This document shows, piece after piece, positions 10,272 through 48,613 of a stretch of 64,000 nucleotides of DNA (position 1 is its first letter; every line of letters begins with the position of its first letter). The translations under genes and the position numbers were made by a program. Below the pieces are notes generated by a model, which was not told where the DNA came from, made no database searches, and worked only from the letters and a program-made list of their open reading frames with translations. The stretch is from Candidatus Dojkabacteria bacterium (GTDB taxonomy: Bacteria; Patescibacteriota; Dojkabacteria; SC72), in assembly GCA_050950165.1 (NCBI GenBank), contig JBMNHC010000001.1, forward strand, positions 124,673 to 188,672. The letters are read 5' to 3'.

Positions 10272-10928
10272 TTATATCCCCTCAATTACTTTTTTAACAT
10301 AATTATCCAAAACCTTAGTAAAAAATTCTTCACCATACGGATTACTCCCTAACTCTAAGCATTTTACACCTCTACTGTAGCAGTTTTTACACAGAAGGGC
10401 AAAGCGAGAAACATCAATATATCTCAACCCCTCTTTACTACCACACACTCTACACTCAGAGAAATCCTCCAAAAAACCCATCTCTTTCAAAAAAATAACC
10501 CTAAACCTGTTAGTAGACTCTAAATCAAAATCTCTCTCCAATACACTCCTTAACATATCAAAAACCTTCTCATTAGCATCATACTCTGCAAGCATACGAT
10601 TAAGCATATTCAACACCCTCTTCATATTCTCAACCCTTCCTTTCAACACATCCGTATTAGGAGCATATACCAATGAAGATTCAGTAAGAAGAGGCAAACC
10701 CTTACCCTCATAGAAAGATATCTCACTAATACACAAAGTCTGCATATTACCCCTATTCTTACTATTAATCTTTCTAATACTCTTTGCAAACAGAGCAAAC
10801 TTTCCCAAATTCCTACCAAAAACAGTCAACACCTTATCTGCCTCCGAGTAATTAACCGACTTTATTACAACAACTAAATCCTTCATTAAAGTATAATAAT
10901 AGATATTAAAAACCTCTCTTCTCAACAC
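10272..10928 (-). CDS. recO: DNA repair protein RecO (compact form).
   Basis: An N-terminal OB-fold-like pattern is present (VVVIKSVNYSEADKVLTVFGRNLGKFALFAKSIRK). The C-terminal zinc finger reads CRVCGS...CKNCYS. Confidence 0.6.
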   Translation of the reverse strand: MLRREVFNIYYYTLMKDLVVVIKSVNYSEADKVLTVFGRNLGKFALFAKSIRKINSKNRGNMQTLCISEISFYEGKGLPLLTESSLVYAPNTDVLKGRVENMKRVLNMLNRMLAEYDANEKVFDMLRSVLERDFDLESTNRFRVIFLKEMGFLEDFSECRVCGSKEGLRYIDVSRFALLCKNCYSRGVKCLELGSNPYGEEFFTKVLDNYVKKVIEGI

Positions 10929-11535
10929 CCTTTCTTGTAATAACTACCCAAGGAGTCTTAAGAAGAATATATACCTCATTAAGTATACTAGGATTCTTTG
11001 CAAAATGACTCTCCATTACTAACCTCTTCCTAAAAGGAATACTGTTTCTACCAGACACCTGCCATACCCCCGTTATACCAGGCTTAACCTTAAAAATATC
11101 CTCCATATATCTGCTATCCGATGGATATAACTTAAAGTGTCGCTCAAGCTCACTACTGTAATATGGCCTAGGACCTACCAAACTCATCTGCCCCAACACC
11201 ACATTAATTAACTGAGGAAGCTCATCCAAATCTGTATTTCTCAATACCCTGCCAATCCTTGTCACTCTAAAATCATTCTCTAATTTATGACTCCTAACAA
11301 ACTCCCCATCAGTAACTAACATATCATGAGCATTAGGAACCATAGTTCTAAACTTGTACATAAAAAACTCCTTACCACCCAACCCACACCTAACAGGAGT
11401 ACCTACAAACACCTCTCCACCATCAGAAAACTTAATTAGAAGAGCAATAGCTAACATTAAAGGAGAAAACAAAATCCAAAGGACAGTAGCAATAACAAAA
11501 TCCATTATCCTTTTAACAACTCTGTACAACATCAT
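10906..11535 (-). CDS. Polyprenyl-phosphate hexose-1-phosphate transferase (bacterial sugar transferase, WbaP/PglC-like).
   Basis: It has a single N-terminal TM segment followed by KFRTMVPNAHD, RVTRIGRVLRNTDLDELPQLINVVLGQMSLVGPRP and SGRN motifs. Confidence 0.8.
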   Translation of the reverse strand: MMLYRVVKRIMDFVIATVLWILFSPLMLAIALLIKFSDGGEVFVGTPVRCGLGGKEFFMYKFRTMVPNAHDMLVTDGEFVRSHKLENDFRVTRIGRVLRNTDLDELPQLINVVLGQMSLVGPRPYYSSELERHFKLYPSDSRYMEDIFKVKPGITGVWQVSGRNSIPFRKRLVMESHFAKNPSILNEVYILLKTPWVVITRKGVEKRGF

Positions 11536-12694
11536 CTACATACCTTTGTAGTTTATAGATAAAAATCTCAACTGCAAAATTGTTAGACTGCTTCCTACAA
11601 TTATCTGCCTTGTACTTCCTACTATCAAAATTCTTAAGAACCTTTGCTAAAGACTGATACGTATACTTATCAAAAAATTCACCACTCTTAGGATTAATAT
11701 CAGATATACTCTCCACTACACCACCACCTCGATAAGCAATAACTGGAGTACCAGCAGCATTAGCCTCTACAGGAACAATACCGAAATCCTCCCCCTTAAC
11801 AGGAAATATTAACGCCTTTGCCTTAGAAAGCAGATCCAATTTCTCCTCCTCAGAAACAAAACCTAGAAACTTAACATACCCCTTCGCATTTAACTCCTTA
11901 ACTAACTCTTTCATCCTTTCCAAATCATCTCCAATACCAGCAACCTTCAAAGATACCCTAGCACTATGTGCTGCCCTAATGGCAAGCTCTACACCCTTGT
12001 AGGTCTCTACCCTACCCAAATAGAGAAACCAATTCTCTTTTTTGTTAATCTTAGTTACCTCCTGTATAGCCTTAACCTCTACTGGAGGATAGATTACATC
12101 ACTCTCTCTCTTGTAATATTTCTTAATCCTCTTCTGTACAACCTTAGAGATAGCAATCATTTTGTCTATCCTCTGTGCTGCTCTCCTATCCAACCACCTC
12201 CATATATCCTCCACAAAAGTATTCATAAAAAGAGAGTAAATAGAATACAACACCCTGTTTATACCACCCAACCTTTTACCATCCTTTAATGATCTACCTT
12301 CCTTCTCCCAAAGAAATTTAGGAGGAGACATACAGATATTTACATGAGGAATCTTACCATTAGCATATTTAGCAAAAGCTATAGAAAGAGAAAGAATTAC
12401 ATCAAAGTCATTAAATCTAAACAACCTATACGCAAGAGGCTGAAATAGATTTAGAAAATATCTAAACTTAAACTTACCAGGAATATATTGCATAAAAGAA
12501 GTCCTTACCTCAATATCAGGAAAATACCTCTTAACAAAATCCCTATCACAAAAAGCAGTAAAAAGAACACTACCAGGAAACGCCTTAAGCATATCACTCA
12601 AGTGCTTCTCAGCACCACCATATTTGTATAAAGGATCAGCAACTACTGCCACCCTGTATTTACGACTCTCGTTTCTCTCTTTCATAAACCTCAT
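11513..12694 (-). CDS. Glycosyltransferase, GT4 family.
   Basis: The C-terminal GT-B motif is EDFGIVPVEANAAGTPVIAYRGGG. Confidence 0.8.
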   Translation of the reverse strand: MRFMKERNESRKYRVAVVADPLYKYGGAEKHLSDMLKAFPGSVLFTAFCDRDFVKRYFPDIEVRTSFMQYIPGKFKFRYFLNLFQPLAYRLFRFNDFDVILSLSIAFAKYANGKIPHVNICMSPPKFLWEKEGRSLKDGKRLGGINRVLYSIYSLFMNTFVEDIWRWLDRRAAQRIDKMIAISKVVQKRIKKYYKRESDVIYPPVEVKAIQEVTKINKKENWFLYLGRVETYKGVELAIRAAHSARVSLKVAGIGDDLERMKELVKELNAKGYVKFLGFVSEEEKLDLLSKAKALIFPVKGEDFGIVPVEANAAGTPVIAYRGGGVVESISDINPKSGEFFDKYTYQSLAKVLKNFDSRKYKADNCRKQSNNFAVEIFIYKLQRYVDDVVQSC

Positions 12695-13811
12695 TAATAA
12701 ATTTCTCTAGATTAATTAAAAACCTCTCCTCACTAAATACCCTTGCCCCCTTAACAATCTCTCTAGGATTATACATCCTCTTACTAAATTTCTTAAGTAA
12801 AGAAACCAACTCTTTTTCACTACTAAAAAACTCCCCAGAAACACCACCCTTAACAGTCTCTAAAACACCACCCTCACCATATGCAAAAACAGGAGCTCCC
12901 TGTGCCATAGCCTCAACAGGAACTAATCCAAAATCCTCTACACCACAAAAAAGCAACAGATCTGCCATACTGTAAAACACCCTTACCTCAGCATCATCCT
13001 CAAGAAAACCTAAAAACCTAATCAACGGATTACCATTAGCAACCCCCTCCAAATATTTCAAATCAGGACCCTCTCCAATAACTAATAATTGACGATTAGT
13101 AGCAATAGCGGCACGTATAGCCCAATCTACCCTCTTGTAATCATACAAACGAGACACAACAAGAACAAAATCACCCTCCACACCATACCTCTCTCTAACC
13201 TCTCTCTTTCTACTCTCAGACACACTCTCAAAACTCTCTTCTAGAACACCAGGGTATAAAACAGTAGCATCTACCCCATATCTTTTCTTAATCTTTTCAG
13301 CAATATATTTAGAATTAGCTGTCCAGTAATCTACACGCTTAGATATACTTAAATCCCACATACGCATATATGTATTCAAAACAGTAGAAAGAGGCTTGTA
13401 TATCCTCTTAAACCTAGACGCCCTAATATTCATCTCATTGTCCCAAAGACTCCTAGGAGGAGTCATTACCATAGCAATATGAGGCTGATTAATACCAGTA
13501 ATCACACCCTTTGCTGGACCAGCAGATATACTAATTACTAAATCATACCCTCTCAAATCAAAACTCTCATACGCAAAAGGTGTTAAAACTTTAAAGTGTC
13601 TATAAAAACTTCTTACCTTAGGAATCCTCTGTACAAAACTAGTAAAAACCCTCTGCTTTAGCATAGGATATTTTTTAGAATCAAAAAACATCGTAAAAAT
13701 ATCAGCCTTAGGAAAAAGTTTTAACATTGAAAACATCTCTCTATCAGCACCACCAAACGCAACCATCTGATCTGCAACAATAGCAACCCTCTTGAAATAT
13801 TCCCTCTGCAT
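12660..13811 (-). CDS. Glycosyltransferase, GT4 family.
   Basis: The motif is EDFGLVPVEAMAQGAPVFAYGEGG. Its start overlaps the stop of the upstream gene by 1 nt (TAATG). Confidence 0.8.
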   Translation of the reverse strand: MQREYFKRVAIVADQMVAFGGADREMFSMLKLFPKADIFTMFFDSKKYPMLKQRVFTSFVQRIPKVRSFYRHFKVLTPFAYESFDLRGYDLVISISAGPAKGVITGINQPHIAMVMTPPRSLWDNEMNIRASRFKRIYKPLSTVLNTYMRMWDLSISKRVDYWTANSKYIAEKIKKRYGVDATVLYPGVLEESFESVSESRKREVRERYGVEGDFVLVVSRLYDYKRVDWAIRAAIATNRQLLVIGEGPDLKYLEGVANGNPLIRFLGFLEDDAEVRVFYSMADLLLFCGVEDFGLVPVEAMAQGAPVFAYGEGGVLETVKGGVSGEFFSSEKELVSLLKKFSKRMYNPREIVKGARVFSEERFLINLEKFINEVYEREKRES

Positions 13812-14290
13812 TAAAGCTCTGGAAGACCATCTTCCCCTAACTCATCCACTAGTGGAAAATCGTCATCCTCTTCCTTATCTAATTCTGCAACGATATCATC
13901 TAGATCAACTAGACCCTCTGGGGCAGAAGAGGTACTCTTTTCTTCATCATCTGGATAAATCTCTCCTAACGAATCAATACCATCATCAACAACAGCTCCA
14001 TCATCTAATGACTCTTCATCACTAAGAACAATAACATTAGGTCTCTCATCATCCTCAACACTACTAGACTCTTCTTTTACTACACTCTTTTTCTCCTCTA
14101 TCTTCCTCAGAAACTCCTCAGCCTCTTCTCCAAACTTCTCAACAACATCAATTACTCTCATTGGTTTAGAACAATCTCCACAAAGCTCAATATGTTCTGT
14201 TTCCTCACCACAATCAGGACAAGAGAAGAAAACCACATGTACACTTTGTCTTGGAATCACAACCTTCTTTGTATTTTCTCTGTTCGCCAT
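13811..14290 (-). CDS. Zinc-ribbon protein with a highly acidic C-terminal tail (159 aa). Function unknown.
   Basis: The zinc ribbon reads CPDCGEETEHIELCGDCSKPM (C-x2-C-x10-C-x2-C) and is followed by a long D/E-rich tail. It is translationally coupled to the downstream GT4 gene. Confidence 0.45.
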   Translation of the reverse strand: MANRENTKKVVIPRQSVHVVFFSCPDCGEETEHIELCGDCSKPMRVIDVVEKFGEEAEEFLRKIEEKKSVVKEESSSVEDDERPNVIVLSDEESLDDGAVVDDGIDSLGEIYPDDEEKSTSSAPEGLVDLDDIVAELDKEEDDDFPLVDELGEDGLPEL

Positions 14291-14523
14291 AATTATTAAC
14301 CGATAACTGATTACAGTAATCTAGAATAGTACAATTGATGGATATAGGTCAAGAATCCCATAATAATAGCTATTCAAACTTAAAGTAATAACACCACTCA
14401 TACTCTCTACCTTTACCCCTTCTTTACACCCTTTCTAATATATTTCTTTAAAAAGAAAAACACTTCACAAAAAAGAAATTTTTATGATACTATTTACTGT
14501 AATTAATTTTGTATAAAGAATAA

Positions 14524-15204
14524 ATGAAGAATTTTAATAAAGTCTTCTGGGGAATAGCTTTAATTGCTATCGGAGTAATATATGGCCTTAAAACATTAGA
14601 AATTGTCAACATTAATATTTTCTTTAACGGATGGTGGACACTATTTATCATTATCCCTGGCTTAGTAGGCTTAATAAAAGGAAAAGATATAACTGGTAAC
14701 CTAATAGTTATACTAATTGGATTCTCCATATTACTTCTTGCACAAGGACTTATCTCCTTTGACAAACTAAGCCGTTTAATCATCCCCATTATCCTCGTTA
14801 CTACTGGTCTCATTGTACTGTTCAAAAACAAAGACAATACTACAACAACTAAAAAGATTAAAGAAATTAATAAAGATGGAAAACCTTTAGAATATTTCTC
14901 AACCTTCAGTGGTCAAAAGATTGTTTTAGAAGAAGAAGTAAAAAATTTAGAACTAAGTGCTATCTTCGGAGGAATTACCTGTGATTTAAGAAATGCCATT
15001 ATCAAAGAAGATGTTGCAATGGATACAACAGCAATATTTGGAGGTATAGATATATTAGTTCCAGATGACGTAAACGTTAAAGTAGTACAAACAGCTATGT
15101 TTGGTGGTGTGGATAATAAGAGAGAAGGTAAAAAAGAAGATAAAAGTAAAAAAACAATATATATAAATTCAACATGTATATTTGGAGGAGTAGAAATAAA
15201 ATGA
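14524..15204 (+). CDS. LiaF-like membrane protein: N-terminal TM helices plus a C-terminal LiaF/DUF2154-type beta domain.
   Basis: Four N-terminal TM helices are present. C-terminal repeats FGGITCDLR, FGGIDILVPDDVNVKVV, FGGVDNK and FGGVEIK resemble B. subtilis LiaF (IGDVDIYVPYDMEVSV). Confidence 0.5.
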   Translation: MKNFNKVFWGIALIAIGVIYGLKTLEIVNINIFFNGWWTLFIIIPGLVGLIKGKDITGNLIVILIGFSILLLAQGLISFDKLSRLIIPIILVTTGLIVLFKNKDNTTTTKKIKEINKDGKPLEYFSTFSGQKIVLEEEVKNLELSAIFGGITCDLRNAIIKEDVAMDTTAIFGGIDILVPDDVNVKVVQTAMFGGVDNKREGKKEDKSKKTIYINSTCIFGGVEIK

Positions 15205-16016
15205 AAACCTTTCAAACAATAATAAAATACACTGCTCTTGTATTTGCAATTACTTTGATTGTAGTAATATTTAAGTTAACAATAGATAGCTTACTCTTTG
15301 TTGGTAATCTTTTTGATAAAAACCCAAGAGTAGAATCTTTAGTTGAGAGAGAGATTACCTTTGACTTTAATGACTACAAGAACTTAGACATCCAAACTAT
15401 GGCAAGTAGATTAACTCTAAAAACAGGAGATCGCTTCTCTGTAACTACTAACAACAAAGATATAACAGTACAGGAGAGTAAAGATACAATTATTATTAAT
15501 GATAACAATAGAGAAAGCATCTACTTCTATAACGAAAATTTGGAGTTAATCGTTGTTCTACCTACTAACACAACATTAGATTCAATTAGAATAGATACAG
15601 GTGCAGGAAAGATGTTAATTGAGGAATTAAATTGCAAAAATGCAACAATTAATCTAGGTGCAGGTGGATTAGAAGTAAATAAAATAGATGTTACTAACGA
15701 AATTAAAATATCTGGAGGTATAGGTAAAATAACTATTCATCATGGAAGTCTTAATAACCTAGAAGCAGATTTGGGAGTTGGGAAATTAAGTGCAATACTC
15801 TCTCTAACAGGAAAAAACAATATTAACACAGGTATAGGAGGATTAGATTTAGAACTTTTAGATAGCTCTACTAACTATACTTTTAACATCGAAAAAGGCA
15901 TAGGTGATATTGAACTTAACGAAGATAGTATACAAACAGGAGCATATGGAAATGGTTTACATACAGTTGATATATCTGGTGGTATAGGGGAGATAGAGAT
16001 AACTACACTAGATTAA
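15201..16016 (+). CDS. DUF4097/YvlB-like beta-helical 'putative adhesin' domain protein with an N-terminal TM anchor. The start was chosen at the ATGA overlap; an alternative upstream start lies at 15174.
   Basis: Repeated GAGxL/SGGIGxIxI beta-helix motifs occur: LGAGGLEVN, ISGGIGKITI, LGVGKLSA, TGIGGLDLEL, ISGGIGEIEI. Confidence 0.45.
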   Translation: MKTFQTIIKYTALVFAITLIVVIFKLTIDSLLFVGNLFDKNPRVESLVEREITFDFNDYKNLDIQTMASRLTLKTGDRFSVTTNNKDITVQESKDTIIINDNNRESIYFYNENLELIVVLPTNTTLDSIRIDTGAGKMLIEELNCKNATINLGAGGLEVNKIDVTNEIKISGGIGKITIHHGSLNNLEADLGVGKLSAILSLTGKNNINTGIGGLDLELLDSSTNYTFNIEKGIGDIELNEDSIQTGAYGNGLHTVDISGGIGEIEITTLD

Positions 16017-16019
16017 TTA

Positions 16020-16763
16020 CTACCTTCTACACTTACGAACTTTTGTGGCAACTTTCTTATTATATGGCCATGTTTTAATTACTCTATCTACTAAATCCTC
16101 ATCACTAAATGTTATTTCATTCTTGTTTAATAATTTTAATGGCTTACGCAATGCATATGCCACTCCTAAATCAAATACACTTCCGACACTCGATTGATCA
16201 TAATATATGTCAACTTCCTCAGACGTAGCAACTGCCTCAGCATTCTGTTTACATATGGCATATCCACCAAACAAATCTACTTGTCTTGTATGAAGATGTG
16301 GAGCATGAATGATATATCCTTCTTTGTACTTTTCACTAACAAACCTCTCTATCCATTTTCTTTGCTCTTCTGTTGCATTCCTTACTGGACATATTAAAAA
16401 TATTTTATTATCTATTGGGGTATTAACTATTTTATTTAACTTTATACCTATACGCTTAACATTCTCAATTCTTCCATCCATTTCAGTTCTAACATCTGAA
16501 TAGTCTAATAATGGGAATGTCTCATCACCAATTTTACTCCATACATATGGCATCATAGTAAATGATTTACTATTTTCTTCAAAATCCAAATCTCTCTCAT
16601 TTATAATTTTTATCTTTACTCCATTTACAAACAGCATTCCTAAAATAAATAAACATTCCTTATTACTTGGCTCAAGTATTATTTCTGCTTCCTCACAGCA
16701 TTCAATCTTTTCTAGCTCCTCATCTATATTCAAATTGTCGTATTTTAAGTATCTTAACATCAA
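16020..16763 (-). CDS. Hypothetical protein whose C-terminal domain weakly resembles nucleoside 2-deoxyribosyltransferase / DNPH1 (Rcl).
   Basis: IFLICPV resembles the NDT IYLAGPF motif. DQSSVGSVFDLGVAYALRKPL resembles D.GT.fE.GyA.A.gKPv, but has Asp in place of the catalytic Glu. Confidence 0.3.
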   Translation of the reverse strand: MMLRYLKYDNLNIDEELEKIECCEEAEIILEPSNKECLFILGMLFVNGVKIKIINERDLDFEENSKSFTMMPYVWSKIGDETFPLLDYSDVRTEMDGRIENVKRIGIKLNKIVNTPIDNKIFLICPVRNATEEQRKWIERFVSEKYKEGYIIHAPHLHTRQVDLFGGYAICKQNAEAVATSEEVDIYYDQSSVGSVFDLGVAYALRKPLKLLNKNEITFSDEDLVDRVIKTWPYNKKVATKVRKCRR

Positions 16764-16801
16764 AAACCCTCCTTAAACTCTATCATCATTTTATTAAAAA
16801 T

Positions 16802-19753
16802 TTATCTCCCACAACACTTCTTGTACTTCTTGCCACTACCACATGGACAAGGATCATTGCGTCCTACCTTTGTTGCCCTTCTAACAGTCTGTTGCTTACT
16901 AACATTACCAGGCCTACTATCCGAAATACTCTTAACCTCCTCTTTTTCTGTCTGCATAGCATCAACAACAGAAGGATTCTGAACAACCCTAACCTTAAAG
17001 AATCTACCTACAGTATTCTCATCAATACTTCTTAACATACTATCAAACAACCTAAAACCCTCATTCTTGTACTCTACTAAAGGATCTCTCTGTGCAAGAT
17101 TACGAAGAGATATACCCTCTCTTAAATCCTGCATATTATCCAAATGCTCCATCCAATACCTATCAATACCCTGCAGTATGAGAATCTTAGAAAGCTCTCT
17201 CATCGGGAGGAAACCTATGGAGTAAATATGATAAACAAAACAAACTAACACCAATCTCTTTAACTGCTTACCAATCTCAGTAGAACTCTTACCATCTAAA
17301 CTTCTAAAAAACTCTACACTACTCTTAAAACCCAAAGCCTTAACACCCTGCTCAAACAGTTCCTCTGTTAACAAATTCTTCACCTGAATATATAAATTCC
17401 TCTCCTCAACATTATCTATCTCCATATCATCCTCTAACTGAGACATGATGAGCATATCTATATACTCCAAAAGCTTCTTCAAAATTGAAGTATCAAGAGG
17501 ACTTAATTTAAACCTCAAACCATCCAAATACTCAATATGCCAACTCTCTGCCTTAGTCACTGCAAAACCATCCAACATATCCTGCAAACCATCAATATCT
17601 AAATCCAAAACATACTTAATATCATCCTCAAGAGAAATATCCTTACTCTCACTAACCTCCTGTGCAATCTCTAAAACCTTTGTTCTAAGATCGTAGATAA
17701 TATTTCTCTGCTTATTCAACACATCATCATACTCAACAAGCCTTTTACGAATATCATAGTTATGAGACTCTACCTTCTTCTGTGCATTCTCAATAGTTTT
17801 ACCAAGAATACCCATGGATATTGGAATATCATCCTCTAAACCCACCTGAGACATAATCGTTTGCATTCTCTCACCACCAAATAACCTCATAAGCTCATCC
17901 TCAAAAGAAACAAAAAACTTACTCTCACCAGGATCTCCCTGTCTTCCCGCTCTACCTCGTAGTTGATTATCAATCCTTCTTGACTCATGCCTCTCTGAGC
18001 CAATAATGTACAACCCTCCTAACTCTTTAACACCATCCTCCAATGCAATATCTGTTCCTCTTCCTGCCATATTAGTAGCAATCGTCACTGCACCCTTCTT
18101 ACCCGCCTGTGAGACGATCTTAGCCTCTCTCTCGTGATACTTAGCATTAAGTACCTCATGAGCAATACCCTCCTTAGAAAGCATCGCAGAGAGCGCCTCA
18201 GACTTCTCTACAGATGTAGTACCAACTAACACAGGCTGTCCCTTCTTACTCTTCTCCTTAATCTCTTCTACAATTGCTTCAAATTTACCAACCATAGTTC
18301 GGTAAACAACATCATTGTAATCCTTTCTCACAACAGGCTTGTTAGTAGGAACAACGATAGTATCTAAATTATATATTGAAGAAAACTCTTCAGCCTCAGT
18401 AAGAGCCGTACCCGTCATACCAGAAAGATACGAATACAACCTAAAGTAATTCTGCAAAGTAATTGTTGCCATAGTGCGACTCTCACGATTAACCTCCACA
18501 CCCTCCTTAGCTTCAATAGCCTGATGCAAACCCTCACTATACCTTCTACCAGGCAAAGCCCTACCCGTAAACTCATCAACAATTAACACCTCACCATCTC
18601 TTACCATATATTCATCATCTAGTTTGTAAAGCTCTTTAGCCTTAAGTGCATTATCCAAATGATATGCAAGCTGTGCATTCTCATAGATATTCTTAACTTT
18701 CAAAATCTTCTCTACCGCATCTATACCCGCATCATTTAGAGACACAGAATTTGATTTTTCATCCACGGTATAGTGTTTCTCAACCTCCAAAGACTTAACT
18801 AAAGTAGCAAACTGCTTATACATATCATTGGAAGCCTGTGCACTAGTAGAAATTATTAAAGGAGTACGAGCCTCATCAATTAAAATTGAGTCAGCCTCAT
18901 CTACAATTGCAAAATATCTAGGACCCTGAACCCTCTCATCTAAAGAAGCAACCATATTATCCCTAAGATAGTCAAAACCATACTCATTGTTAGTACCATA
19001 TACAACATCACACGCATACGCCTCTTTCTTACTACACTCAATGAGATTAACACCACTCATATGATCATACTTAAGCCTACCAGCTTCTTTTGCTCTAATA
19101 TCTCTCTCTTTAATCAGCTCCTTACCCTCATCTCCCTTAAGCTTTACTACCTCTTCATCAGTAATATATCTGTACTGAATACCAGAGTTAATAGCTGATA
19201 CACTTATTCCCAAACTACCCAAAATATGCCCATTCCACTCAGCATCTCTTCTTGCAAGATAGTCGTTTACAGTCACTAGATGAGCTCCCCTCCCTGTTAA
19301 TGCATAAAGATAAAGGGGCATATTAGCAGCCAATGTCTTACCCTCTCCAGTAAAAAGCTCAGCTATCTTGTTATCAAACAGAACATACCCTGCCATTACC
19401 TGTACATCAAAATGCCTGTGATTCGCAACTCTCCTGGATGCCTCCCTTACTACAGCAAAAGCCTCTGGCAATATCTCTCTTAACACCTTCTTCTCATCAT
19501 CAAGTCTCTTTTTTAATTCCTCCTTACCATATCTATCAAACTCTTCTCTAACAGAATCTAAATCTACATTCAAAATCTTTCTAAAATAGGTACTCTTCTC
19601 TCTTAATTCTTCATCAGATAACTTCTTAATCTCCTCTTCAAAAGAGTTAACTTCATCTACAACAAGCTGAATCTTCTTTATTTGTTTCTCATTAGAGTCA
19701 AAAAGACTCTCAAGTAGCTTAAGCATATCCTCGATTATATCACAGAAATTCAA
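16802..19753 (-). CDS. secA: Preprotein translocase ATPase SecA. The true start is probably the internal Met at 19723 (MLKLLESLF...).
   Basis: DEAD-like motor motifs are present ([32 protein letters not shown]) together with the C-terminal zinc-binding tail [14 protein letters not shown]. Confidence 0.95.
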
Positions 19754-19794
19754 CCTTTAAGGATTTATTCATCTTTAATTGAAACAATATATAT

Positions 19795-20295: not shown

Positions 20296-20519
20296 ATATA
20301 TCAGAAGCAACATATACTGACTTTAATAGTTACTCTTCAATTACCATATCAGGTAGGTATAGAGAGAGTATAAAGGCAGAAGTTTCAATATATCAATGTA
20401 CTCCATTTAATCTCTTCAATATTGATACATGGGGTAAATGTAAATTAAAACTAGTAACTAAAATAGAGAAAGACATTACCCCCATATACTCAGGATATAT
20501 TCAAACAAATAACAGAGTT

Positions 20520-21194: not shown

Positions 21195-21203
21195 ATATTA
21201 AAA

Positions 21204-37114: not shown

Positions 37115-37126
37115 AAATAAAATTTT

Positions 37127-38050: not shown

Positions 38051-38054
38051 ATTT

Positions 38055-41212: not shown

Positions 41213-42170
41213 TTATAAACTATAATACCCTTTATACCACTCCACAAATTTACCTATACCCTCGTCTAATGTAATCTTAGGGTCATAACCTAACATCTCT
41301 TTTGCTTTACTAGTATCTGAATATGTTATCAATACATCACCCTTTTGCATAGGTAGTAATTTTTTCTTAGCCTTAATACCCATATGCTTCTCTAATATAG
41401 ATATCATCTCTCCTAAATCATCAGGACTACCCTTACCTAAATTAAAGATTTCATTCTCATATTCACAATCAATAGCTCTAACTACACCATCTACAATATC
41501 ATCTACATATGTAAAATCTCTCTTCAAATCCTTACCGTAGTTAAATACAGGAATCTCCTCTCCTTTTACTCATCTGATTAGCAAACTTAAATATTGCCAT
41601 ATCAGGTCTGCCCCACGGTCCATATACTGTAAAGAATCTTAACCCTATCGTCTTTAATCCAAACAGATGATGATATGTATACGCTATTAACTCATTAGAC
41701 CTCTTACTAGCTGCATACAGTGATATTGGACTATTTACATCCTGTATCTCAGTAAATGGTATATCTGCTGTATTACCATATACACTACTTGATGATGCAT
41801 ATATAAAGTGTTTAATACCTTTATCTTTGGTTAAGTTAATCATATTAACAAAACCAACCATATTACTATCTGCATATACATATGGATTCTCTATTGAATA
41901 TCTAACACCTGCTTGTGCTGCTAAATGACATACTCTATCTATATCATTCTCATCAAATACTTCCTTTAAATCATTAAGTTTAGATATATCTACTCTATAC
42001 AGTTTAAAGTTAGAATATTTCTCTAACTCTTTATTCCTATCTTCTTTTAAACTTACCTCATAGTAATCATTAAAATTATCTACACCTATTACAGTATCAC
42101 CCCTTTCTAGTAATACCTTTGCTAGACTATGTCCTATAAATCCTGCTGTACCTGTTACTAATATTTTCAT
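41213..42170 (-). pseudogene. NAD-dependent nucleotide-sugar epimerase (UDP-glucuronate 4-epimerase-like). It is split into two ORFs (41541..42170 and 41213..41527) by a +1 frameshift in an A4 run on the coding strand, seen on the plus strand as TTTT at 41564-41567.
   Basis: The N-terminal part carries KILVTGTAGFIGHSLAKVLLERGDTVIGVDNFNDYY and YAASKRSNE (YxxxK). Deleting one A restores ...AIFKFANQMSKGEEIPVFNYGKDLKRDFTYVDDIVDG..., which matches the conserved epimerase core. Confidence 0.8.
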
Positions 42171-42262: not shown

Positions 42263-42949
42263 ATGAATACCTTAAATATCAAAAAATTCTTAAAAGATTT
42301 AAAAGAGAACCCTTATGAGTACAAAAAAGTACTACAATTTGTCAAAGACAATACTCCTCAAAATGGAAAAATTCTTGATGTTGGATGTGGATACGGTCGA
42401 TATTTAAAACCTCTAAGTAAAGAATTTAAAAACATAGTCGGTGTTGAGGCAAATAAACTAATAAGAGATACTCTCATACAAAAGGGACTAAAAGTGGTCT
42501 CTCCAGAGAAGTTAGATAGAAAAGAGAGATTTGACACTATTATTATGTCACATATTATAGAACATTTTCATCCTGAAGAACTTATAGAAATGATGGATCG
42601 TTATTTAGATCTCTTAAAGGTAGGAGGATGCATAATTATAGCAACACCAACTCTTACAGAGACTTTCTATATGGATCTTGACCATAAAAGACCATATTAT
42701 CCTCAATCAATAGAAGAAGTTTTTGATGGAAATAACCAACAAATAAAATCTTATTCAAAGAATAGATTGAGAACAGAAAAAATACACTTCAGAAAATCTA
42801 GATTTCAATTGTTCAAAAACTCGCTTTTATTTAACAACACAAAGAATTTGGGAATTGCTATTAATATCCTCCTTGCATTAATATTTAGAATTTCTTTCGG
42901 ATTAATAGGCTATAAAAGTGGATGGATAGGGATATTCAGAAAATTTTAG
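42263..42949 (+). CDS. Class I SAM-dependent methyltransferase.
   Basis: Motif I is KILDVGCGYGRYL, and IIMSHIIEHFHPEEL is also present. Confidence 0.7.
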   Translation: MNTLNIKKFLKDLKENPYEYKKVLQFVKDNTPQNGKILDVGCGYGRYLKPLSKEFKNIVGVEANKLIRDTLIQKGLKVVSPEKLDRKERFDTIIMSHIIEHFHPEELIEMMDRYLDLLKVGGCIIIATPTLTETFYMDLDHKRPYYPQSIEEVFDGNNQQIKSYSKNRLRTEKIHFRKSRFQLFKNSLLFNNTKNLGIAINILLALIFRISFGLIGYKSGWIGIFRKF

Positions 42950-42958
42950 TTCTTTAAT

Positions 42959-44020
42959 CTAAAAAAAGTTAGCATGCCCATCCCTTTCCAATTTCTCAAG
43001 ATCACTCTCTACCATAATATCTACTAATTCTTCTAAAGAAGTTTTAGCTTTCCAACCAAGCTCTCTCTCCGCTTTAGAAGGATTTCCCAAAAGTAAATCA
43101 ACATCTGTAGGTCTAAAATATCTAGGATTAATTCTTACTAATACCTTACCAGTCTTTTTATCCTTACCTATTTCATCTACACCCTTACCCTCCCATACAA
43201 TTTCAAAACCTAATTTCTTACATGTTAACTCTACAAACTCCCTTACGGTATGTGTCTTTCCCGTTGCTATTACATAATCATCTGGTTTCTCTTGTTGAAG
43301 CATTAACCACATTGCCTCTACATAGTCTTTAGCATAACCCCAGTCTCTCTTGGAATCCATATTACCTAACTCTAATACATCCTGCATACCTAACTTAATC
43401 TTACAGAGAGCAGTTACTATCTTTCTTGTTACAAAGTTATGTCCTCTTCTCTCTGATTCATGACTAAACATTATTCCGTTACAAGCAAAGAATCCCTGCA
43501 CATCTCTATAGTGCTTAATCATTAAATGTGCAAACAATTTAGCTATAGCATAAGGACTGTGAGGTCTAAATTCTGTCAATTCAGTTTGTGGAGTCTCTAC
43601 AACTTTACCATACAAATCTGCGGTTGAAGCCTGAAACATTTTGCATTCTTTTTCAATCCCACTTTTTTTGACTGCCTCTAAAATTCTCAAAACCCCCAAA
43701 CCGTTGACATCAGAAGTTAGAATAGGTTGTTCAAAAGAGAGACTAACCTGACTCTGTGCCGCAAGATTATATATCTCATTAGGGGAAATCTCTTTTATAA
43801 TACTTATTAACCCTTCTTCATCTAGTAAATTGCCATAATGTAAAAACAGTCTCTTATTTATAATATTACTATCATTACAAAGATGATCTATAGAAAGTAG
43901 TTTCTTATCTTCTTCAAATATCAAACCATGTATCTCGTAATCTTTTTCTAAAAGAAGTTCTGTAAGAAAACTACCATCTTGACCATTTATTCCTGTAACA
44001 AAAGCTCTATTATTTGACAT
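42959..44020 (-). CDS. GDP-mannose 4,6-dehydratase-like SDR. It is a mosaic copy: the N-terminal half is divergent, and the C-terminal ~160 aa are identical to the downstream gmd.
   Basis: Motifs: [25 protein letters not shown] and SPYAIAKLFAH (YxxxK), then [23 protein letters not shown]... identical to the neighbouring gene. It lacks the canonical RRSS motif. Confidence 0.75.
   Translation of the reverse strand: MSNNRAFVTGINGQDGSFLTELLLEKDYEIHGLIFEEDKKLLSIDHLCNDSNIINKRLFLHYGNLLDEEGLISIIKEISPNEIYNLAAQSQVSLSFEQPILTSDVNGLGVLRILEAVKKSGIEKECKMFQASTADLYGKVVETPQTELTEFRPHSPYAIAKLFAHLMIKHYRDVQGFFACNGIMFSHESERRGHNFVTRKIVTALCKIKLGMQDVLELGNMDSKRDWGYAKDYVEAMWLMLQQEKPDDYVIATGKTHTVREFVELTCKKLGFEIVWEGKGVDEIGKDKKTGKVLVRINPRYFRPTDVDLLLGNPSKAERELGWKAKTSLEELVDIMVESDLEKLERDGHANFF
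42987..43463. repeat. About 477-bp near-identical (1 mismatch) direct repeat shared with 44109..44585, covering the 3' halves of the two tandem gmd genes.
   Basis: Compared directly by eye. The offset is 1122 bp. Identity starts at tccaatttctcaag and ends at ctctgattcatga. Confidence 0.85.
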
Positions 44021-44083: not shown

Positions 44084-45145
44084 TTAAAAATAAATCTCTT
44101 CATCCTTCTCCAATTTCTCAAGATCACTCTCTACCATAATATCTACTAATTCTTCTAAAGAAGTTTTAGCTTTCCAACCAAGCTCTCTCTCCGCTTTAGA
44201 AGGATTTCCCAAAAGTAAATCAACATCTGTAGGTCTAAAATATCTAGGATTAATTCTTACTAATACCTTACCAGTCTTCTTATCCTTACCTATTTCATCT
44301 ACACCCTTACCCTCCCATACAATTTCAAAACCTAATTTCTTACATGTTAACTCTACAAACTCTCTTACGGTATGTGTCTTTCCCGTTGCTATTACATAAT
44401 CATCTGGTTTCTCTTGTTGAAGCATTAACCACATTGCCTCTACATAGTCTTTAGCATAACCCCAGTCTCTCTTGGAATCCATATTACCTAACTCTAATAC
44501 ATCCTGCATACCTAACTTAATCTTACAGAGAGCAGTTACTATCTTTCTTGTTACAAAGTTATGTCCTCTTCTCTCTGATTCATGATTAAACAATATACCA
44601 TTACAAGCAAATATATCGTATGCTTCTCTATAGTTTTTTATTATCCAAAAACCATATAACTTAGCTACTCCATATGGACTACGAGGATAGAAAGGAGTTG
44701 TTTCCGATTGAGGAGTTTCTACAACTTTACCATACAACTCTGATGTAGAAGCTTGATAAAACTTTACCTTCTTCTCCATACCCAATGTACGTATAGCCTC
44801 TAGAAGCCTTAATGTCCCTAAAGCATCAATATTAGCAGTAAACTCTGGTAACTCAAAAGATATCTGTACATGACTCTGTGCTGCAAGATTATATATCTCA
44901 TCTGGTTTAATCTGATTTATTATCCTTGTTAAACTCGCTCCATCAGTAACATCACCATAGTGTAAAAACATTCTTTTATCTAATATCTCAGGATTATCAT
45001 AGAGATGATGAATTCTCCATGTATTTACAGTACTTGCCCTTCTAATTAACCCATGTACTTCATAGCCTTTCTCTAAGAGTAACTCTGTTAAAAAGGACCC
45101 ATCTTGACCAGTAATACCAGTTATTAATGCTTTTTTCATAAACAT
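44084..45145 (-). CDS. gmd: GDP-mannose 4,6-dehydratase.
   Basis: Canonical GMD motifs: [47 protein letters not shown] and [12 protein letters not shown]. Confidence 0.9.
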
Positions 45146-45209
45146 TTAGATTAAATTTATATCTTCTTTAGTACAAAGTAATTTAGAACCTGTACCTCAT
45201 ATCGCATAG

Positions 45210-46595
45210 CTATGCCCCTAAGTTATCAAACTTAAATATATTACTCATATATTCTACATCTAAATAGTTTCTAGCATCTAATAACCTTTTCTCTTTCATA
45301 AGAGTAGAAAGATATTCAAAATCTAACTCTTTAAACTGAGGCCAATCTGTAGCCACTACCACTATCTCACTACCTTTAAATACCTCATCTACATCCTCTG
45401 AATACACTAAACCCTTCTCCTCTGGAAATTCTAGCTTTGCTTCTTCTATAGCCTCAGGATCATAACCAACTACACTATATCCCTTCTTTACTAAAGCCTT
45501 ACACAATCTACCTGCAGGAGACATTCTCATATCACTAGTACCTGGCTTAAATGACAATCCCAGTACACCTACCTTGCTTTTTGGAGAAGTCCCCATATCT
45601 TCTATCTTCTGTAAAACAAAATCTACCTGTTCCATATTAACCTGCAAAATAGCCTTAAACAGAGTAGCATCTACATCATGCTCCTCTAAAGATTTAATCA
45701 AACCATTCACATCCTTTGGAAAACAACCACCTCCAAAACCAATACCTGCATACAAAAAAGACCTATTTATCCTTCTATCCATACCAACACCATCCATAAC
45801 CTCTGTAACATTTGCATCTACCTTATCACAAATTCTAGCTATATTATTCGCATATGATATTTTCATAGCCAGCATAGTATTGGAACACACCTTTATTAAC
45901 TCTGCACTCTCTAGTTTAGTACTCATGCACTTCTTGTTAAACTCTACATCTTTTCGGTTGTTATTATGCACATTATTACTAGCATACATACTAATCTCTG
46001 GATTTTTACTAATAATATCGTCTGCTAAAAACTCTATCTTTTCAAATATCTTAAAAACCTTCCTCTTAGCCTCTCTATCATCACCACCAATTACAATACG
46101 ATCTTGGATAATAGAGTCAAGAACCGCTGCACCCTCTCTTAGAAACTCAGGAGATGAAAGATATGCAAATTTAAGTTTAGGATTTACCCTTTTTATCCTT
46201 CTCATAGCTTCTCTACCTGTACCTACAGGAACTGTACTTCTCTGTACAAAAATAGTTCCATCTTTAATATATTTAACTGCACCCTCTACAGCTTCAAATA
46301 TATATCTCAAATCAAAACCACCACTAGGACCACTAGGAGTACCTACACAGAGAAATACAACATCCACATCACTTAACCCTTCTTTATAATCTAAAGTCGG
46401 AATTAAATTACCACTCTGAATACCATACTTAACTAAAGTATCCAACCCTAACTCATAGAAATATGATTTACCCTTCTTGATAGTATCTATCTTCTTCTTA
46501 TCTACATCTATACAGTATGTTTTATACCCTACCCTTGCTAGTAAAGCTGAAAGTGTTAATCCCACATATCCTGTCCCTATTATCGCTATCTTCAT
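45210..46595 (-). CDS. ugd: UDP-glucose 6-dehydrogenase family nucleotide-sugar dehydrogenase, with a ~50-aa insertion.
   Basis: The N-terminal motif is MKIAIIGTGYVGL. The catalytic motif is GFGGGCFPKD. The C-terminal UDPG_MGDP_dh_C-like motif is GLSFKPGTSDMRMSPA. Confidence 0.8.
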   Translation of the reverse strand: MKIAIIGTGYVGLTLSALLARVGYKTYCIDVDKKKIDTIKKGKSYFYELGLDTLVKYGIQSGNLIPTLDYKEGLSDVDVVFLCVGTPSGPSGGFDLRYIFEAVEGAVKYIKDGTIFVQRSTVPVGTGREAMRRIKRVNPKLKFAYLSSPEFLREGAAVLDSIIQDRIVIGGDDREAKRKVFKIFEKIEFLADDIISKNPEISMYASNNVHNNNRKDVEFNKKCMSTKLESAELIKVCSNTMLAMKISYANNIARICDKVDANVTEVMDGVGMDRRINRSFLYAGIGFGGGCFPKDVNGLIKSLEEHDVDATLFKAILQVNMEQVDFVLQKIEDMGTSPKSKVGVLGLSFKPGTSDMRMSPAGRLCKALVKKGYSVVGYDPEAIEEAKLEFPEEKGLVYSEDVDEVFKGSEIVVVATDWPQFKELDFEYLSTLMKEKRLLDARNYLDVEYMSNIFKFDNLGA

Positions 46596-46661
46596 ATTCC
46601 ACGATATTTCTAACTTAAATTCTTAGAGTAAGTATATACATTAAGAATATATGTTTCAATT

Positions 46662-47669
46662 TTGAGAAAATTACTTAAATGTGGTAAAAATATTGTAATT
46701 AATTTTCTTTTAAAAACAATGTTTAACAAACCAAAACTCTCTATCGTTATACCCGTATACAATGAAGAAGAGAACATCCCATTAGTTAATGAGAAGATAA
46801 AGGAAGGATTGAAAGGTAAAATAGACTATGAGGTAATCTGGGTAGATGATGGTAGTACAGATAAAACTAGTAAGAAACTTAAACAAGCATCTCTTAAGGA
46901 TACTAATGTTCACGCTATTAGATTAATGAGTAGAGTTGGTCAAAGCGGTGCATTAATGGCTGGAATAGATAAGGCTGATGGACAATATATAGCTACAATA
47001 GATGGAGACAACCAAAATGACCCTGCAGATTTTTTAAAGATGATAAAGAAACTAGAAGAGGATGATTTAGATGCAGTTGTAGGTTGGAGAAAAAACAGAT
47101 GGAGTGGAAATATATTGAGGAGATTACCTTCATTAGTTGCGAATAAGATGATGAAAATTGCCTTTGGAGACTTAGGTATTCATGATACTGGATGTATGGT
47201 AAAAGTTGTTAAATCTTCCATAATGAAAGACATTAGACTCTATGGAGAACTACACAGATTTATGTCCTATCTTCTAGGGATGTATGGAGCAAGAATAGGT
47301 GAAGTAGAAGTCTATCATCAGAAGAGAGAGCATGGTAAAAGCAAATATGGATTTGGTCGAACATTAACAGTTATATTTGATATCCTCAATGTAAAATTTT
47401 TAACAATGAGAAGAAAAACCCCTATTCAATTTATGGGACCACTAGCTCTCTTTACATATTTTTTAAGTCTAGTAAGTTTTACTGTAGCTATAGTTGAGAA
47501 AGTAGTAAATCAAGCAGACCTCACAGAGAATCCACTACTACTAATAACAGTATTTGGAGTAATTATGGGAACACAATTTTTCTCATTTGGATTGTTAGGA
47601 GAGTTAATTCTAAGGTCATACTACGAGAACGGAAACAGAAAAACTTACGCTATTAGAGAAGAATATTAA
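46662..47669 (+). CDS. Polyprenyl-phosphate glycosyltransferase (GT2, DPM1/GtrB-like) with a C-terminal TM anchor. An alternative start lies at 46719 (MFNKPKLSIV...).
   Basis: Motifs: LSIVIPVYNEEENI, YEVIWVDDGSTDKT and DGDNQNDP. The C-terminus has two TM helices. Confidence 0.8.
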   Translation: MRKLLKCGKNIVINFLLKTMFNKPKLSIVIPVYNEEENIPLVNEKIKEGLKGKIDYEVIWVDDGSTDKTSKKLKQASLKDTNVHAIRLMSRVGQSGALMAGIDKADGQYIATIDGDNQNDPADFLKMIKKLEEDDLDAVVGWRKNRWSGNILRRLPSLVANKMMKIAFGDLGIHDTGCMVKVVKSSIMKDIRLYGELHRFMSYLLGMYGARIGEVEVYHQKREHGKSKYGFGRTLTVIFDILNVKFLTMRRKTPIQFMGPLALFTYFLSLVSFTVAIVEKVVNQADLTENPLLLITVFGVIMGTQFFSFGLLGELILRSYYENGNRKTYAIREEY

Positions 47670-48613
47670 TCATCGTATCTCTCTTTTTTAAGCTCGTATA
47701 GTATTCTTTCTTGATTCTCTCTTACCCTATTTATCATATTCGCTAACAACCCTACTATTAGTAATAGCAGACCAAAAATTAAGAATCCGAATCCAATAAA
47801 ACCAATAAACTTAAAAGGTGTAAAATCTCCCGTATTCAAAAAATATATACCCAAGAATATCTCCATTATTAAACCGAGAGTAACAAAAATAGCCCCCATA
47901 CCACCGAAGAAGAGGAAAGGTTTGTAATTTTTTAATGTATTTATAATTATCTTTAATGTTCTAAAACCATACTTAAAAACATTACTAGCTACTCTTGATT
48001 TTCTCTCTTTAAAATATATTACACTAACGGGAACCTCTACTATCCTTAATCCCTTAAAAGCCATATCTAAAATACTCTCTTGGGTATATGTAAAACTACC
48101 AAAAAGATTAAGTCTAAGTAGTGCCTCTCTACTGTATGCCCTAAAACCACATGATACATCTACAAATTTATATCCCGTTAACAGAGATATTATCCTAGAC
48201 ATCTGTACATTACCCCAATACTTGTTCTTAGGCATATTCTCTGGAATACCATTACCAAACCTATTACCTACAACCATATCAGCCTCTCCTTTAAGAACAG
48301 GCCTAATTATATTAGGTATCTCACTACTATCAAACTGCCTGTCTGCATCAATACTCACTAATATATCTATCTCCTCTTCTAGAGCATACGAAACAGCACT
48401 CTGAAATGCACTACCTACACCCCTATTTCTACCATGACTAATTACATCTGCACCACACTTCTTAGCTATCTTAGCAGTGCTGTCTGTACTACCATCATCT
48501 ATAACTAAGATATTAACTTCTTTAATACCTTCTACACTTTTTGGTAAAGAAGTTATTACATCGGCAATACTCTCTTCTTCATTTAATGCAGGTATATATA
48601 TAGTTAGCTTCAT
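47666..48613 (-). CDS. Polyprenyl-phosphate glycosyltransferase (GT2, DPM1/GtrB-like) with a C-terminal TM anchor.
   Basis: Motifs: LTIYIPALNEEESIADVI, ILVIDDGSTDST and SIDADRQF. The C-terminus has two TM helices. Confidence 0.8.
   Translation of the reverse strand: MKLTIYIPALNEEESIADVITSLPKSVEGIKEVNILVIDDGSTDSTAKIAKKCGADVISHGRNRGVGSAFQSAVSYALEEEIDILVSIDADRQFDSSEIPNIIRPVLKGEADMVVGNRFGNGIPENMPKNKYWGNVQMSRIISLLTGYKFVDVSCGFRAYSREALLRLNLFGSFTYTQESILDMAFKGLRIVEVPVSVIYFKERKSRVASNVFKYGFRTLKIIINTLKNYKPFLFFGGMGAIFVTLGLIMEIFLGIYFLNTGDFTPFKFIGFIGFGFLIFGLLLLIVGLLANMINRVRENQERILYELKKERYDD

Follow-up and report, generated by a model that had tools for sequence, protein, structure and literature searches.

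A probable envelope glycan locus of a Dojkabacteria bacterium with putative polyprenyl-phosphate-sugar synthases and three predicted GT-C membrane transferases

Dojkabacteria belong to the candidate phyla radiation (CPR, Patescibacteria), bacteria with very small genomes that live attached to other cells and whose surface chemistry is nearly unexplored. In this study, a stretch of 64,000 nucleotides of contig JBMNHC010000001.1 of Candidatus Dojkabacteria bacterium (hereafter, the window) was analyzed, in which genes for glycan synthesis are found between positions 10,906 and 48,613. These genes probably constitute a chromosomal envelope glycan locus, which would direct extracytoplasmic glycosylation in the manner of the multi-component systems of Gram-positive bacteria; we hold this reading with reasonable, not high, confidence, and it draws on sequence comparisons, structure models and analogy. 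In the systems referred to, synthesis of a C55-P-sugar by a GT-A enzyme is followed by its flipping by a GtrA- or Wzx-type protein, and a GT-C enzyme then attaches the sugar to teichoic acids or wall polysaccharides; some of the synthases have no membrane segments and depend on a small membrane protein, and sequence models frequently fail to recognize the divergent GT-C enzymes (PMC8035078). The window (genes are named by their first coordinate, see Table 1) encodes counterparts of each component: (i) GT2 synthases of polyprenyl-phosphate sugars (32720, 46662 and 47666), (ii) GtrA- or Wzx-type putative flippases (33447, 27969 and 38055) and (iii) polytopic transferases of the GT-C fold with a conserved acidic motif. 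Synthase, flippase and GT-C genes are linked in the window as well as in the related loci L014, L053, L056, L075, L081 and L091.

In the scheme proposed here, nucleotide sugars would be made by the products of two gmd genes, ugd and a short-chain dehydrogenase/reductase (SDR) epimerase gene. [quoted passage not shown] Oligosaccharides would probably also be assembled on the lipid carrier by soluble GT2 and GT4 enzymes, starting from the product of a phosphoglycosyl transferase (PGT) or from a polyprenyl-phosphate sugar, while the methyltransferase MT1 (32093) would probably methylate the lipid-linked sugar. GtrA and two Wzx-type proteins would carry the lipid-linked sugars over the membrane, and the GT-C enzymes 25554, 33959 and 30281 would transfer them outside to wall polymers, lipoglycans or surface proteins. 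The GT-C enzymes would probably also polymerise and ligate, as proposed for lactococcal WpsH/WpsJ. This last step is proposed because the window has no Wzy, Wzz, LCP or WaaL gene: a Pfam and NCBIfam scan covering nearly all open reading frames (ORFs) of at least 100 amino acids (aa) not nested inside a longer one (about 60 long ORFs) gave no match to Wzy_C, Wzz, CpsC/D, LytR_cpsA_psr (LCP) or WaaL. The donor sugars, the pairing of synthases with GT-C enzymes, the flipping activity and the acceptors are what we infer in this scheme.

A preliminary description of this DNA had proposed that three of its GT2 are of the DPM1/GtrB type, and GtrB, DPMS and ArnC are indeed the best PDB relatives of all three. 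The closest structures to 32720 are GtrB sll0501 (4e-14), DPMS 5mlz and ArnC; its longest NCBIfam match, AglJ, spans nearly the whole protein, in which no TM segment is predicted. The product of 46662 aligns over its full length (residues 24-332) with ArnC structures (5e-38), as well as with GtrB sll0501 (4e-23), and its NCBIfam matches are ArnC (1e-46, full length, with a score of 159 versus an equivalog cut-off of 529) and, also below the equivalog cut-off, streptococcal PgfS (3e-36). For 47666, near-full-length alignments to ArnC (3e-14) and DPMS 5mlz (3e-11) were obtained, together with a full-length NCBIfam match to AglJ (8e-46). Both 46662 and 47666 have two C-terminal TM segments. An equivalog cut-off is passed by none of the three proteins, and their assignment to the polyprenyl-phosphate-sugar synthase type as such is well supported by these comparisons. 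The single GtrA expected near the synthases was recognized at 33447 by the GtrA_DPMS_TM model. The GtrA gene runs 8 bp into the start of the 32720 gene, and the two products are predicted to form a polyprenyl-phosphate-sugar synthase pair.

The GT-C assignments were less straightforward, as none of the 25554, 33959 and 30281 proteins has a significant Pfam match. Single-sequence and profile searches of the PDB with these membrane proteins gave nothing useful, and fold comparison was therefore used. Sequence profiles and structure models together confirm all three as predicted GT-C enzymes, including 30281, for which the preliminary description had only ventured a "perhaps"; none of the GT-C or GT2 candidates was reassigned to an unrelated family. 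The first, 25554, has 40 homologues, some of which match PMT, PMT_2 and GT22 models. Among 23 aligned family members PMT_2 was detected in five (best 2e-8; E<=0.01), PMT in three and GT22 in two, and residues W28, D30 and E31, located right after TM1, are invariant. By these comparisons 25554 is a GT-C relative, yet not a demonstrable member of PMT_2. The second, 33959, represents a rare family with only 10 homologues among 5.8 billion proteins. Its profile-profile alignment (hhalign) to the 25554 family reached a probability of 98.8% (E 6.5e-17, 523 columns), and its YQDDW motif is aligned to the DE motif of 25554.

The third predicted GT-C enzyme, 30281, scores 194 bits against the NCBIfam model "LIC_10190 family membrane protein" (curated cut-off 100; model positions 3-423 of 424), and PF26626 (DUF8201) is recorded on its identical product and on 32 of 32 homologues. 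The alias LIC_10190 presumably refers to a Leptospira member, and a literature search on LIC_10190/DUF8201 returned no papers. The structure model of 30281 is of high quality (pLDDT 88, pTM 0.91), and D128 and D239 are invariant in 23 diverse members of the family. The closest resemblance of both the 30281 and the 33959 models is to GT-C enzymes using polyprenyl-phosphate sugars (ALG12, Pmt4 and ArnT); ArnT is among the best matches of both models, and Pmt4 and Pmt2 also rank high among the structures matched by the modelled GT-C proteins. Alignments (hhalign) of DUF8201 with the 25554 and 33959 families were not significant, and it is therefore treated as a separate family.

Gene order connects DUF8201 with the synthase pair. 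In the window, the genes for GtrA, the TM-less GT2 and DUF8201 share one orientation (33869 to 30281), with MT1 between them on the opposite strand. A metagenome scan with an alignment of closer DUF8201 proteins yielded more than 511 relatives, from which 80 loci were retained. At L014, GtrA, GT2 and DUF8201 are directly contiguous and MT1 stands just after them; MT1 orthologues adjoin DUF8201 in both L014 and L091. A row of gmd, GT2 (237 aa), GtrA (Pfam 1.5e-19) and DUF8201 is present in L053. In L075 (6865-7989), L081 (2671-3795) and L091 (6193-7317), a 374-aa fusion of GT2 with GtrA_DPMS_TM lies directly upstream of DUF8201, and in L091 an MT1-like methyltransferase is found between this fusion and DUF8201. 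Another fusion, of 319 aa (L056, 2933-3892), combines a GtrA domain (residues 3-123) with an MT1-like domain (130-312) and is encoded between GT2 and DUF8201. These gene fusions argue that GT2, GtrA and the methyltransferase work together, and because of its gene position 30281 is the probable transferase of the GtrA and GT2 (and methyltransferase) module. This suggests 30281, and not necessarily 33959, as the most natural partner of GtrA and 32720. Many DUF8201 genes reside in generic glycan clusters without the module, and the family is therefore taken to have wider uses. Among the DUF8201 loci, 21 of 34 larger ones have at least one generic glycan gene, and 12 of 35 have a WcaE-like GT2. 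We tentatively suggest, placing rather less than half of our confidence in it, that DUF8201 is an unrecognised, widespread GT-C family which, in some of its loci including the window, acts as the transferase of a four-part module (TM-less DPMS-like GT2, GtrA, SAM methyltransferase and DUF8201) that would bring a (methylated) sugar from polyprenyl phosphate to the surface, and that together with the 33959 family it would allow a CPR bacterium to polymerise and attach its surface glycans by GT-C enzymes only, without Wzy or LCP.

To analyze the conservation of the locus, GTDB species genomes were searched with the 25554 family, which gave 11 loci (L003-L013), and these were compared with the window proteins by tblastn. 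The cassette 25554-27011-27969-29218 (GT-C, GT2, Wzx and GT2) is kept in nine of the 11 loci, and the other two keep part of it. The contigs in question come from metagenome-assembled genomes (MAGs) of Dojkabacteria, Cloacimonadota, Deltaproteobacteria and Woesearchaeota, and from MAGs labelled Saccharibacteria. Dojkabacteria-type relatives (some of them labelled Saccharibacteria) preserve the order PGT, GT4, GT4, SecA, histidine kinase and cassette, and the orthologues of the GT4 pair in L006 and L007 (55-71% identity) keep their order and are syntenic with the PGT. Because of this preserved gene order, the comparison identifies the region as a stable chromosomal locus rather than a mobile island. 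To the right of the cassette, gene content varies among relatives but still includes large polytopic proteins, one of them with a clear PMT_2 match. The 36014-41204 block is not found in the 10-kb flanks of most relatives and is present in L014, a metagenome contig with 50-80% aa identity and the same gene set from 25554 through 39383. The comparison with relatives that had been advised for separating conserved from variable sub-blocks thus gives a conserved cassette and initiator order, and a variable part to the right of the cassette. The cassette (25554-29246) also occurs, at 32-43% aa identity, in L011, L012 and L013, i.e. in Cloacimonadota and Deltaproteobacteria bins and on the Woesearchaeota contig CAYOYN010000003.1, which points to horizontal transfer between phyla and domains or, alternatively, to errors in binning.

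Table 1 Features of the glycan locus and its surroundings in the window
Feature	Position	Strand	Basis and remarks
Initiator block	10906-13811	-	2.9 kb; PGT and two GT4
Polyprenyl-phosphate phosphoglycosyl transferase (PGT)	10906-11535	-	209 aa; Pfam Bac_transf 6e-55
GT4	11513-12694	-	Glycos_transf_1 1e-31; operon with initiator
GT4	12660-13811	-	Glycos_transf_1 2e-19; operon with initiator
Intervening non-glycan stretch	13811-24018		zinc-ribbon, LiaF-like, DUF4097, SecA, M23 peptidase, histidine kinase, several ORFs without assignment
SecA	16802-19753		inside the intervening stretch
Main block	24038-48613		24.6 kb; 22 closely packed genes
Soluble protein, very small family	24038-25441	-	467 aa; candidate divergent class-I methyltransferase
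GT-C 1 (predicted), PMT_2/ArnT-like	25554-27014	+	486 aa; about 9 or more TM helices and a C-terminal soluble domain
GT2, EpsE/TuaG-like	27011-27979	-	Pfam, NCBIfam
Wzx-type flippase 1 (putative)	27969-29246	-	Polysacc_synt 1e-21
GT2	29218-30240	-	Pfam, NCBIfam
GT-C 3 (predicted), DUF8201/LIC_10190 family	30281-31975	-	564 aa; NCBIfam and structure model
Class-I S-adenosylmethionine (SAM) methyltransferase MT1	32093-32677	+	Methyltransf_11 1e-15
DPMS/GtrB-like GT2, TM-less	32720-33454	-	GT2 6e-34
GtrA-family small membrane protein	33447-33869	-	GtrA_DPMS_TM 3e-20
GT-C 2 (predicted)	33959-36013	+	684 aa; about 16 TM helices, extra N-terminal membrane region; rare family, no Pfam model
Variable cytoplasmic assembly block	36014-41204	-	five genes; Pfam and NCBIfam
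GT4	36014	-	variable block
GT-A-like	37127	-	variable block; weak GT2/GT-A match, 3e-5
Wzx-type flippase 2 (putative)	38055	-	variable block; Polysacc_synt 2e-13
GT2, WcaE-like	39383	-	variable block
GT4	40107	-	variable block
Extended-SDR NDP-sugar epimerase/dehydratase	41213-42170	-	split: 41213-41527 (104 aa) and 41541-42170 (209 aa)
Class-I SAM methyltransferase MT2	42263-42949	+	Methyltransf_23 1.5e-15
gmd	42959-44020	-	TIGR01472 474 bits, cut-off 415
gmd	44084-45145	-	TIGR01472 585 bits, cut-off 415
NDP-sugar (UDP-glucose-type) 6-dehydrogenase, ugd	45210-46595	-	three UDPG_MGDP_dh domains
Membrane-anchored synthase (putative), ArnC/GtrB-like	46662-47669	+	convergent with 47666
Membrane-anchored synthase (putative), AglJ/DPMS-like	47666-48613	-	convergent with 46662

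The region had been described as one contiguous island of about 38 kb. Instead, its glycan genes form two groups, separated by approximately 10 kb of non-glycan genes that include SecA and other housekeeping genes and also hold a weak nucleoside-deoxyribosyltransferase-like ORF, an order which is kept in relatives. Altogether the glycan genes occupy approximately 27.5 kb, i.e. about 4% of a 724-kb Dojkabacteria MAG contig. On this contig (724,554 bp) a hypothetical protein is 100% identical to the 33959 product, and the 25554 product matches the same MAG; an exact-sequence search with SecA gave no record. Near-identical copies of the locus are present in two other assemblies (99.67% identity in L001, and 99.99%), and the single-nucleotide polymorphisms relative to L001 cluster at 39.4-41.2 kb, within the variable part. 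The G+C content (GC) of the whole window is about 0.33, with a strongly negative GC skew; it falls to 0.26-0.30 at approximately 29-42 kb, compared with 0.33-0.38 in the flanks, and the minimum overlaps the variable part of the locus. A promoter and terminator scan of the window returned sites that were fewer, or no more numerous, than in shuffled sequence, and was uninformative.

The composition of the cytoplasmic machinery largely agrees with the preliminary description. The polyisoprenyl-phosphate hexose-1-phosphate transferase that it listed is 10906, the likely initiator; it also matches the C-terminal domain of NCBIfam EPS_sugtrans/WbaP (4e-66) below the equivalog cut-offs. All six GT2 (27011, 29218, 32720, 39383, 46662 and 47666) gave strong matches, both Wzx-type flippases were recovered by Polysacc_synt, and the GT-A enzyme is probably 37127, its match being weak. 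Five GT4 had been counted; four were found (11513, 12660, 36014 and 40107), and the Pfam/NCBIfam scan identified no fifth GT4 ORF within 10906-48613.

Two gmd genes and ugd had also been named, and all three are above the respective model cut-offs (for ugd, 400 bits for NDP-sugDHase versus 190, a TuaD-like match lying below the equivalog cut-off). The tandem gmd genes encode proteins with 75% aa identity overall and identical C-terminal halves; at the DNA level, identity is about 99.6% over the 3' approximately 490 bp and about 65% in the 5' halves. The two genes are thus mosaics, and the shared 3' tract looks like the result of gene conversion; contig L001 ends within this repeat. The 42959 product has STADLYG where 44084 has STSELYG, and GLIFEEDK in place of GLIRRAST (the RR motif is only in 44084), and it may, on these differences, diverge in cofactor or activity. 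Judged by family, gmd suggests a GDP-6-deoxyhexose and ugd a uronic acid, in line with the earlier proposal of a glycan built of 6-deoxyhexoses and uronic acids, but the window has no clear enzyme that would finish the 6-deoxyhexose after gmd, and no gene for GDP-mannose synthesis (manC) was matched among its scanned ORFs. The predicted UDP-GlcA-4-epimerase-like gene proved to be an SDR epimerase gene of generic GalE/TviC-like character (GalE 4e-49, TviC 6e-41, no equivalog cut-off passed; N-terminal part matched by Epimerase, 4e-45, and C-terminal part by GDP_Man_Dehyd) and is frameshifted in the window.

An alternative genetic code was considered for the split SDR gene and rejected in view of a one-base indel relative to L001. 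Single-base indels at about 41570, 33243 and 30716 differ among the three near-identical assemblies, and each disrupts another glycan gene, namely the SDR gene of the window, DUF8201 of L002 and, within a T7-8 run, the DPMS-like GT2 of L001. On/off variation between strains could explain these indels, as could errors of assembly.

With regard to methylation, three class-I SAM methyltransferases had been anticipated. Two are firm (32093 and 42263), while the third, for which 24038 is the only candidate, gave weak, sub-threshold matches. The 24038 protein has no Pfam match at E<=10 and no PDB sequence match, and its family comprises 30 relatives among 1.84 billion representative proteins. The family has a conserved TGAGVAE...TD motif (GxGxG-like) and an invariant D178, and it shows weak similarity to Methyltransf_25 (E 0.004, in two of 19 members) and to the 2fhp "methylase" (E 0.098); hhalign of the family against the two methyltransferases of the window was not significant. 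On this basis, 24038 is possibly a divergent class-I methyltransferase.

Outside 10906-48613 the window is of housekeeping character, with genes for RecO, tRNA-Lys, large Ig-like surface proteins, a DsbA-like protein, a hydrolase, a HIT protein and an FtsX/ABC transporter. The products of 99-1790 and 8184-10268 share a C-terminal plan (membrane segment, CarboxypepD_reg/SdrD_B-like domain, membrane segments, second such domain) and contain Thr/Ser-rich linkers; they may be targets of glycosylation or adhesins. Within the intervening stretch, the product of 13811-14290 (159 aa) combines a CxxC...CxxC zinc ribbon at its N-terminus with a very acidic tail; its ORF and the second GT4 gene of the initiator block overlap at stop and start. 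Directly past the cluster, 48750-49877 encodes a protein of 375 aa that comprises a signal peptide, a repetitive region rich in Gly, Asp and Val, and 4-5 C-terminal membrane segments; the repetitive region gave only faint beta-solenoid-type matches, and no family was assigned. The tRNA-Lys gene is at 8064-8138 (8065-8137 in Rfam), and ARAGORN indicated tRNA-Pro(GGG) at 57063-57139; only tRNA-Lys was reported when the whole window was scanned with Rfam at the gathering threshold.

Several of the observations weigh against the proposed scheme of lipid-linked, GT-C-dependent glycosylation. The PMT_2 match of 25554 itself (E 0.0018) has 18.9 bits, below the gathering threshold of 26.1, and the AlphaFold2 model of 33959 is of medium confidence (pLDDT 65; 70-90 in the core, with the N-terminal 167 residues poorly modelled). 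Of 45 loci whose sequence reaches at least 1.5 kb upstream of DUF8201, seven carry an orthologue of the short GT2, the family being wider than the module; three of these seven loci had helped to build the search profiles, which leaves L014, L040 and L056 as independent matches. Neither GT2 of the 25554 cassette resembles a DPMS/GtrB-type synthase, and 25554 may therefore use a flipped oligosaccharide, not a monosaccharide. The SDR gene is split by an extra T near 41570, the 318-aa form being intact in L001 (99.67% identical). Finally, genes for Wzy, LCP or similar proteins could lie elsewhere in the genome.

A neighbouring reading is that of a conventional Wzx/Wzy heteropolysaccharide cluster (for a capsule, exopolysaccharide or secondary wall polysaccharide). 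In it, the PGT would prime a repeat unit on polyprenyl-PP, to be extended by the GT2 and GT4 enzymes and flipped by Wzx, 30281 or 25554 would be the polymerase and the synthases would only add side branches. It overlaps with the proposed scheme and does not exclude it; we regard it as unlikely, yet as the strongest of the alternatives. The polymerase, chain-length regulator and ligase (WaaL/LCP) typical of such a cluster were not found among the scanned ORFs of the window, and the initiator block stands 10 kb off, beyond SecA. Three synthases and GtrA exceed what side-branching usually needs, and both of the candidate "polymerases" for which a model was built resemble polyprenyl-phosphate-sugar-dependent enzymes, as noted above. 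A Wzx/Wzy cluster would, on the other hand, account for the PGT with its two GT4, for the two Wzx and the seven cytoplasmic glycosyltransferases (PGT and Wzx being the genes by which these clusters are recognized), and also for the frequent position of DUF8201 among generic glycan genes. It would likewise suit the composition of the 25554 cassette, with Wzx and two GT2 of a non-DPMS type, and the low-GC variable central block, which resembles O-unit regions.

A dedicated PMT/Pgf-like protein O-glycosylation system, with GT-C enzymes mannosylating or otherwise glycosylating Ser/Thr-rich linkers of secreted or surface proteins (e.g. the flanking Ig-like proteins), appears improbable as an explanation of the whole locus. 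The PMT and PMT_2 matches of the 25554 family, the Pmt4 and Pmt2 structural matches and the similarity of 46662 to PgfS are compatible with it, but teichoic acids, rhamnans and lipid A are likewise modified by GT-C enzymes of the PMT_2 type (PMC8035078). Short Ser/Thr-rich stretches are present in the flanking surface proteins (99-1790, 1830-3785 and 8184-10268), but the enrichment is modest (12-14 of 30 residues) and no MIR or other acceptor-peptide domain was seen in the window. The Pgf system combines a GT-A enzyme, an epimerase and two GT-C enzymes (PMC12041528), and for monosaccharide O-glycosylation of this kind seven cytoplasmic glycosyltransferases and two Wzx would be superfluous. Pgf/PMT-type O-glycosylation is a possible function of one or more of the GT-C enzymes.

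It is most improbable that the region is a horizontally acquired mobile genomic island, since the GC dip, the presence of the cassette in contigs of other phyla and an archaeon and the nearby tRNA-Lys gene stand against the gene order kept in Dojkabacteria-type MAGs, the lack of integrase, transposase and flanking direct repeats in the window, and the housekeeping genes that interrupt it, with only the central block looking exchangeable. A cluster for the O-antigen of lipopolysaccharide (LPS) was rejected on account of the CPR host and of the lack of WaaL and Wzy in the window. The preliminary description had favoured lipid-linked surface glycosylation over a simple O-antigen, and the co-occurrence of synthases, GtrA and GT-C enzymes in a CPR host agrees with this. 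To our knowledge, CPR bacteria have neither LPS nor lipid A, and we know of no LPS in Dojkabacteria; because of such a host the phrase "not a simple O-antigen" is almost true by definition. Literature searches on glycosylation in Dojkabacteria or CPR bacteria yielded nothing specific.

Lipid-linked, GT-C-dependent envelope glycosylation thus remains our preferred reading, and it is supported by what the analysis shows, namely protein families or folds, gene linkage, conservation and gene fusions. The locus is the main surface-sugar gene cluster of this small-genome Dojkabacteria bacterium and is in this sense of an ordinary kind. Its extracellularly acting enzymes are those that routine annotation leaves as "hypothetical". 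A useful addition made here is the predicted GT-C fold of DUF8201/LIC_10190 and of the rare 33959 family, which gives testable functions to families that hundreds of metagenome contigs encode. The GT2-GtrA-methyltransferase-DUF8201 module, found repeatedly, is a further addition and likewise yields testable functions.

Among known systems, the locus shares with GtrA/GtrB/GtrC, CsbB-GtcA-YfhO and GacI/J/K/L the linkage of a synthase, a flippase and a polytopic GT-C protein with an acidic loop motif, and the combination of a TM-less synthase with a small membrane protein is as in GacI/GacJ. It differs from the GtrABC-type systems in several respects: (i) three putative synthases and three predicted GT-C enzymes are encoded in a genome of about 0.7 Mb, (ii) two of the GT-C families are undetected by any Pfam GT-C model, (iii) the module includes a methyltransferase, which is fused to GtrA in a related locus (L056), and (iv) the host is a CPR bacterium.

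An extended scheme is provided by the lactococcal pellicle, where an oligosaccharide is built on GlcNAc-P-C55, flipped by a Wzx-type protein, polymerised by one GT-C enzyme and ligated to rhamnan by another (components WpsA/B, WpsG, WpsH and WpsJ; PMC10821137). By analogy, the window, with its three putative synthases, GtrA, two Wzx, seven cytoplasmic glycosyltransferases and three GT-C enzymes, fits this scheme well. Both loci have a variable glycosyltransferase block beside conserved genes, a likeness of organisation and not of demonstrated sequence similarity to Wps proteins. In contrast to the lactococcal locus, the window has a separate PGT block and its nucleotide-sugar genes are gmd and ugd, with no rhamnan genes (rmlABCD, rgp) seen. 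The streptococcal Pgf system (PgfS, PgfE and PgfM1/M2; PMC12041528) has in common with the window a PgfS-like GT2, an epimerase and more than one GT-C enzyme, whereas the window has many more glycosyltransferases, as well as Wzx, and no adhesin genes inside the cluster. In comparison with the ArnC/ArnT modification of lipid A, the window has no ArnA, ArnB or ArnD genes and the ArnC score of 46662 is under the cut-off, yet this protein aligns with ArnC over its full length and ArnT is among the best structural matches of the predicted GT-C enzymes.

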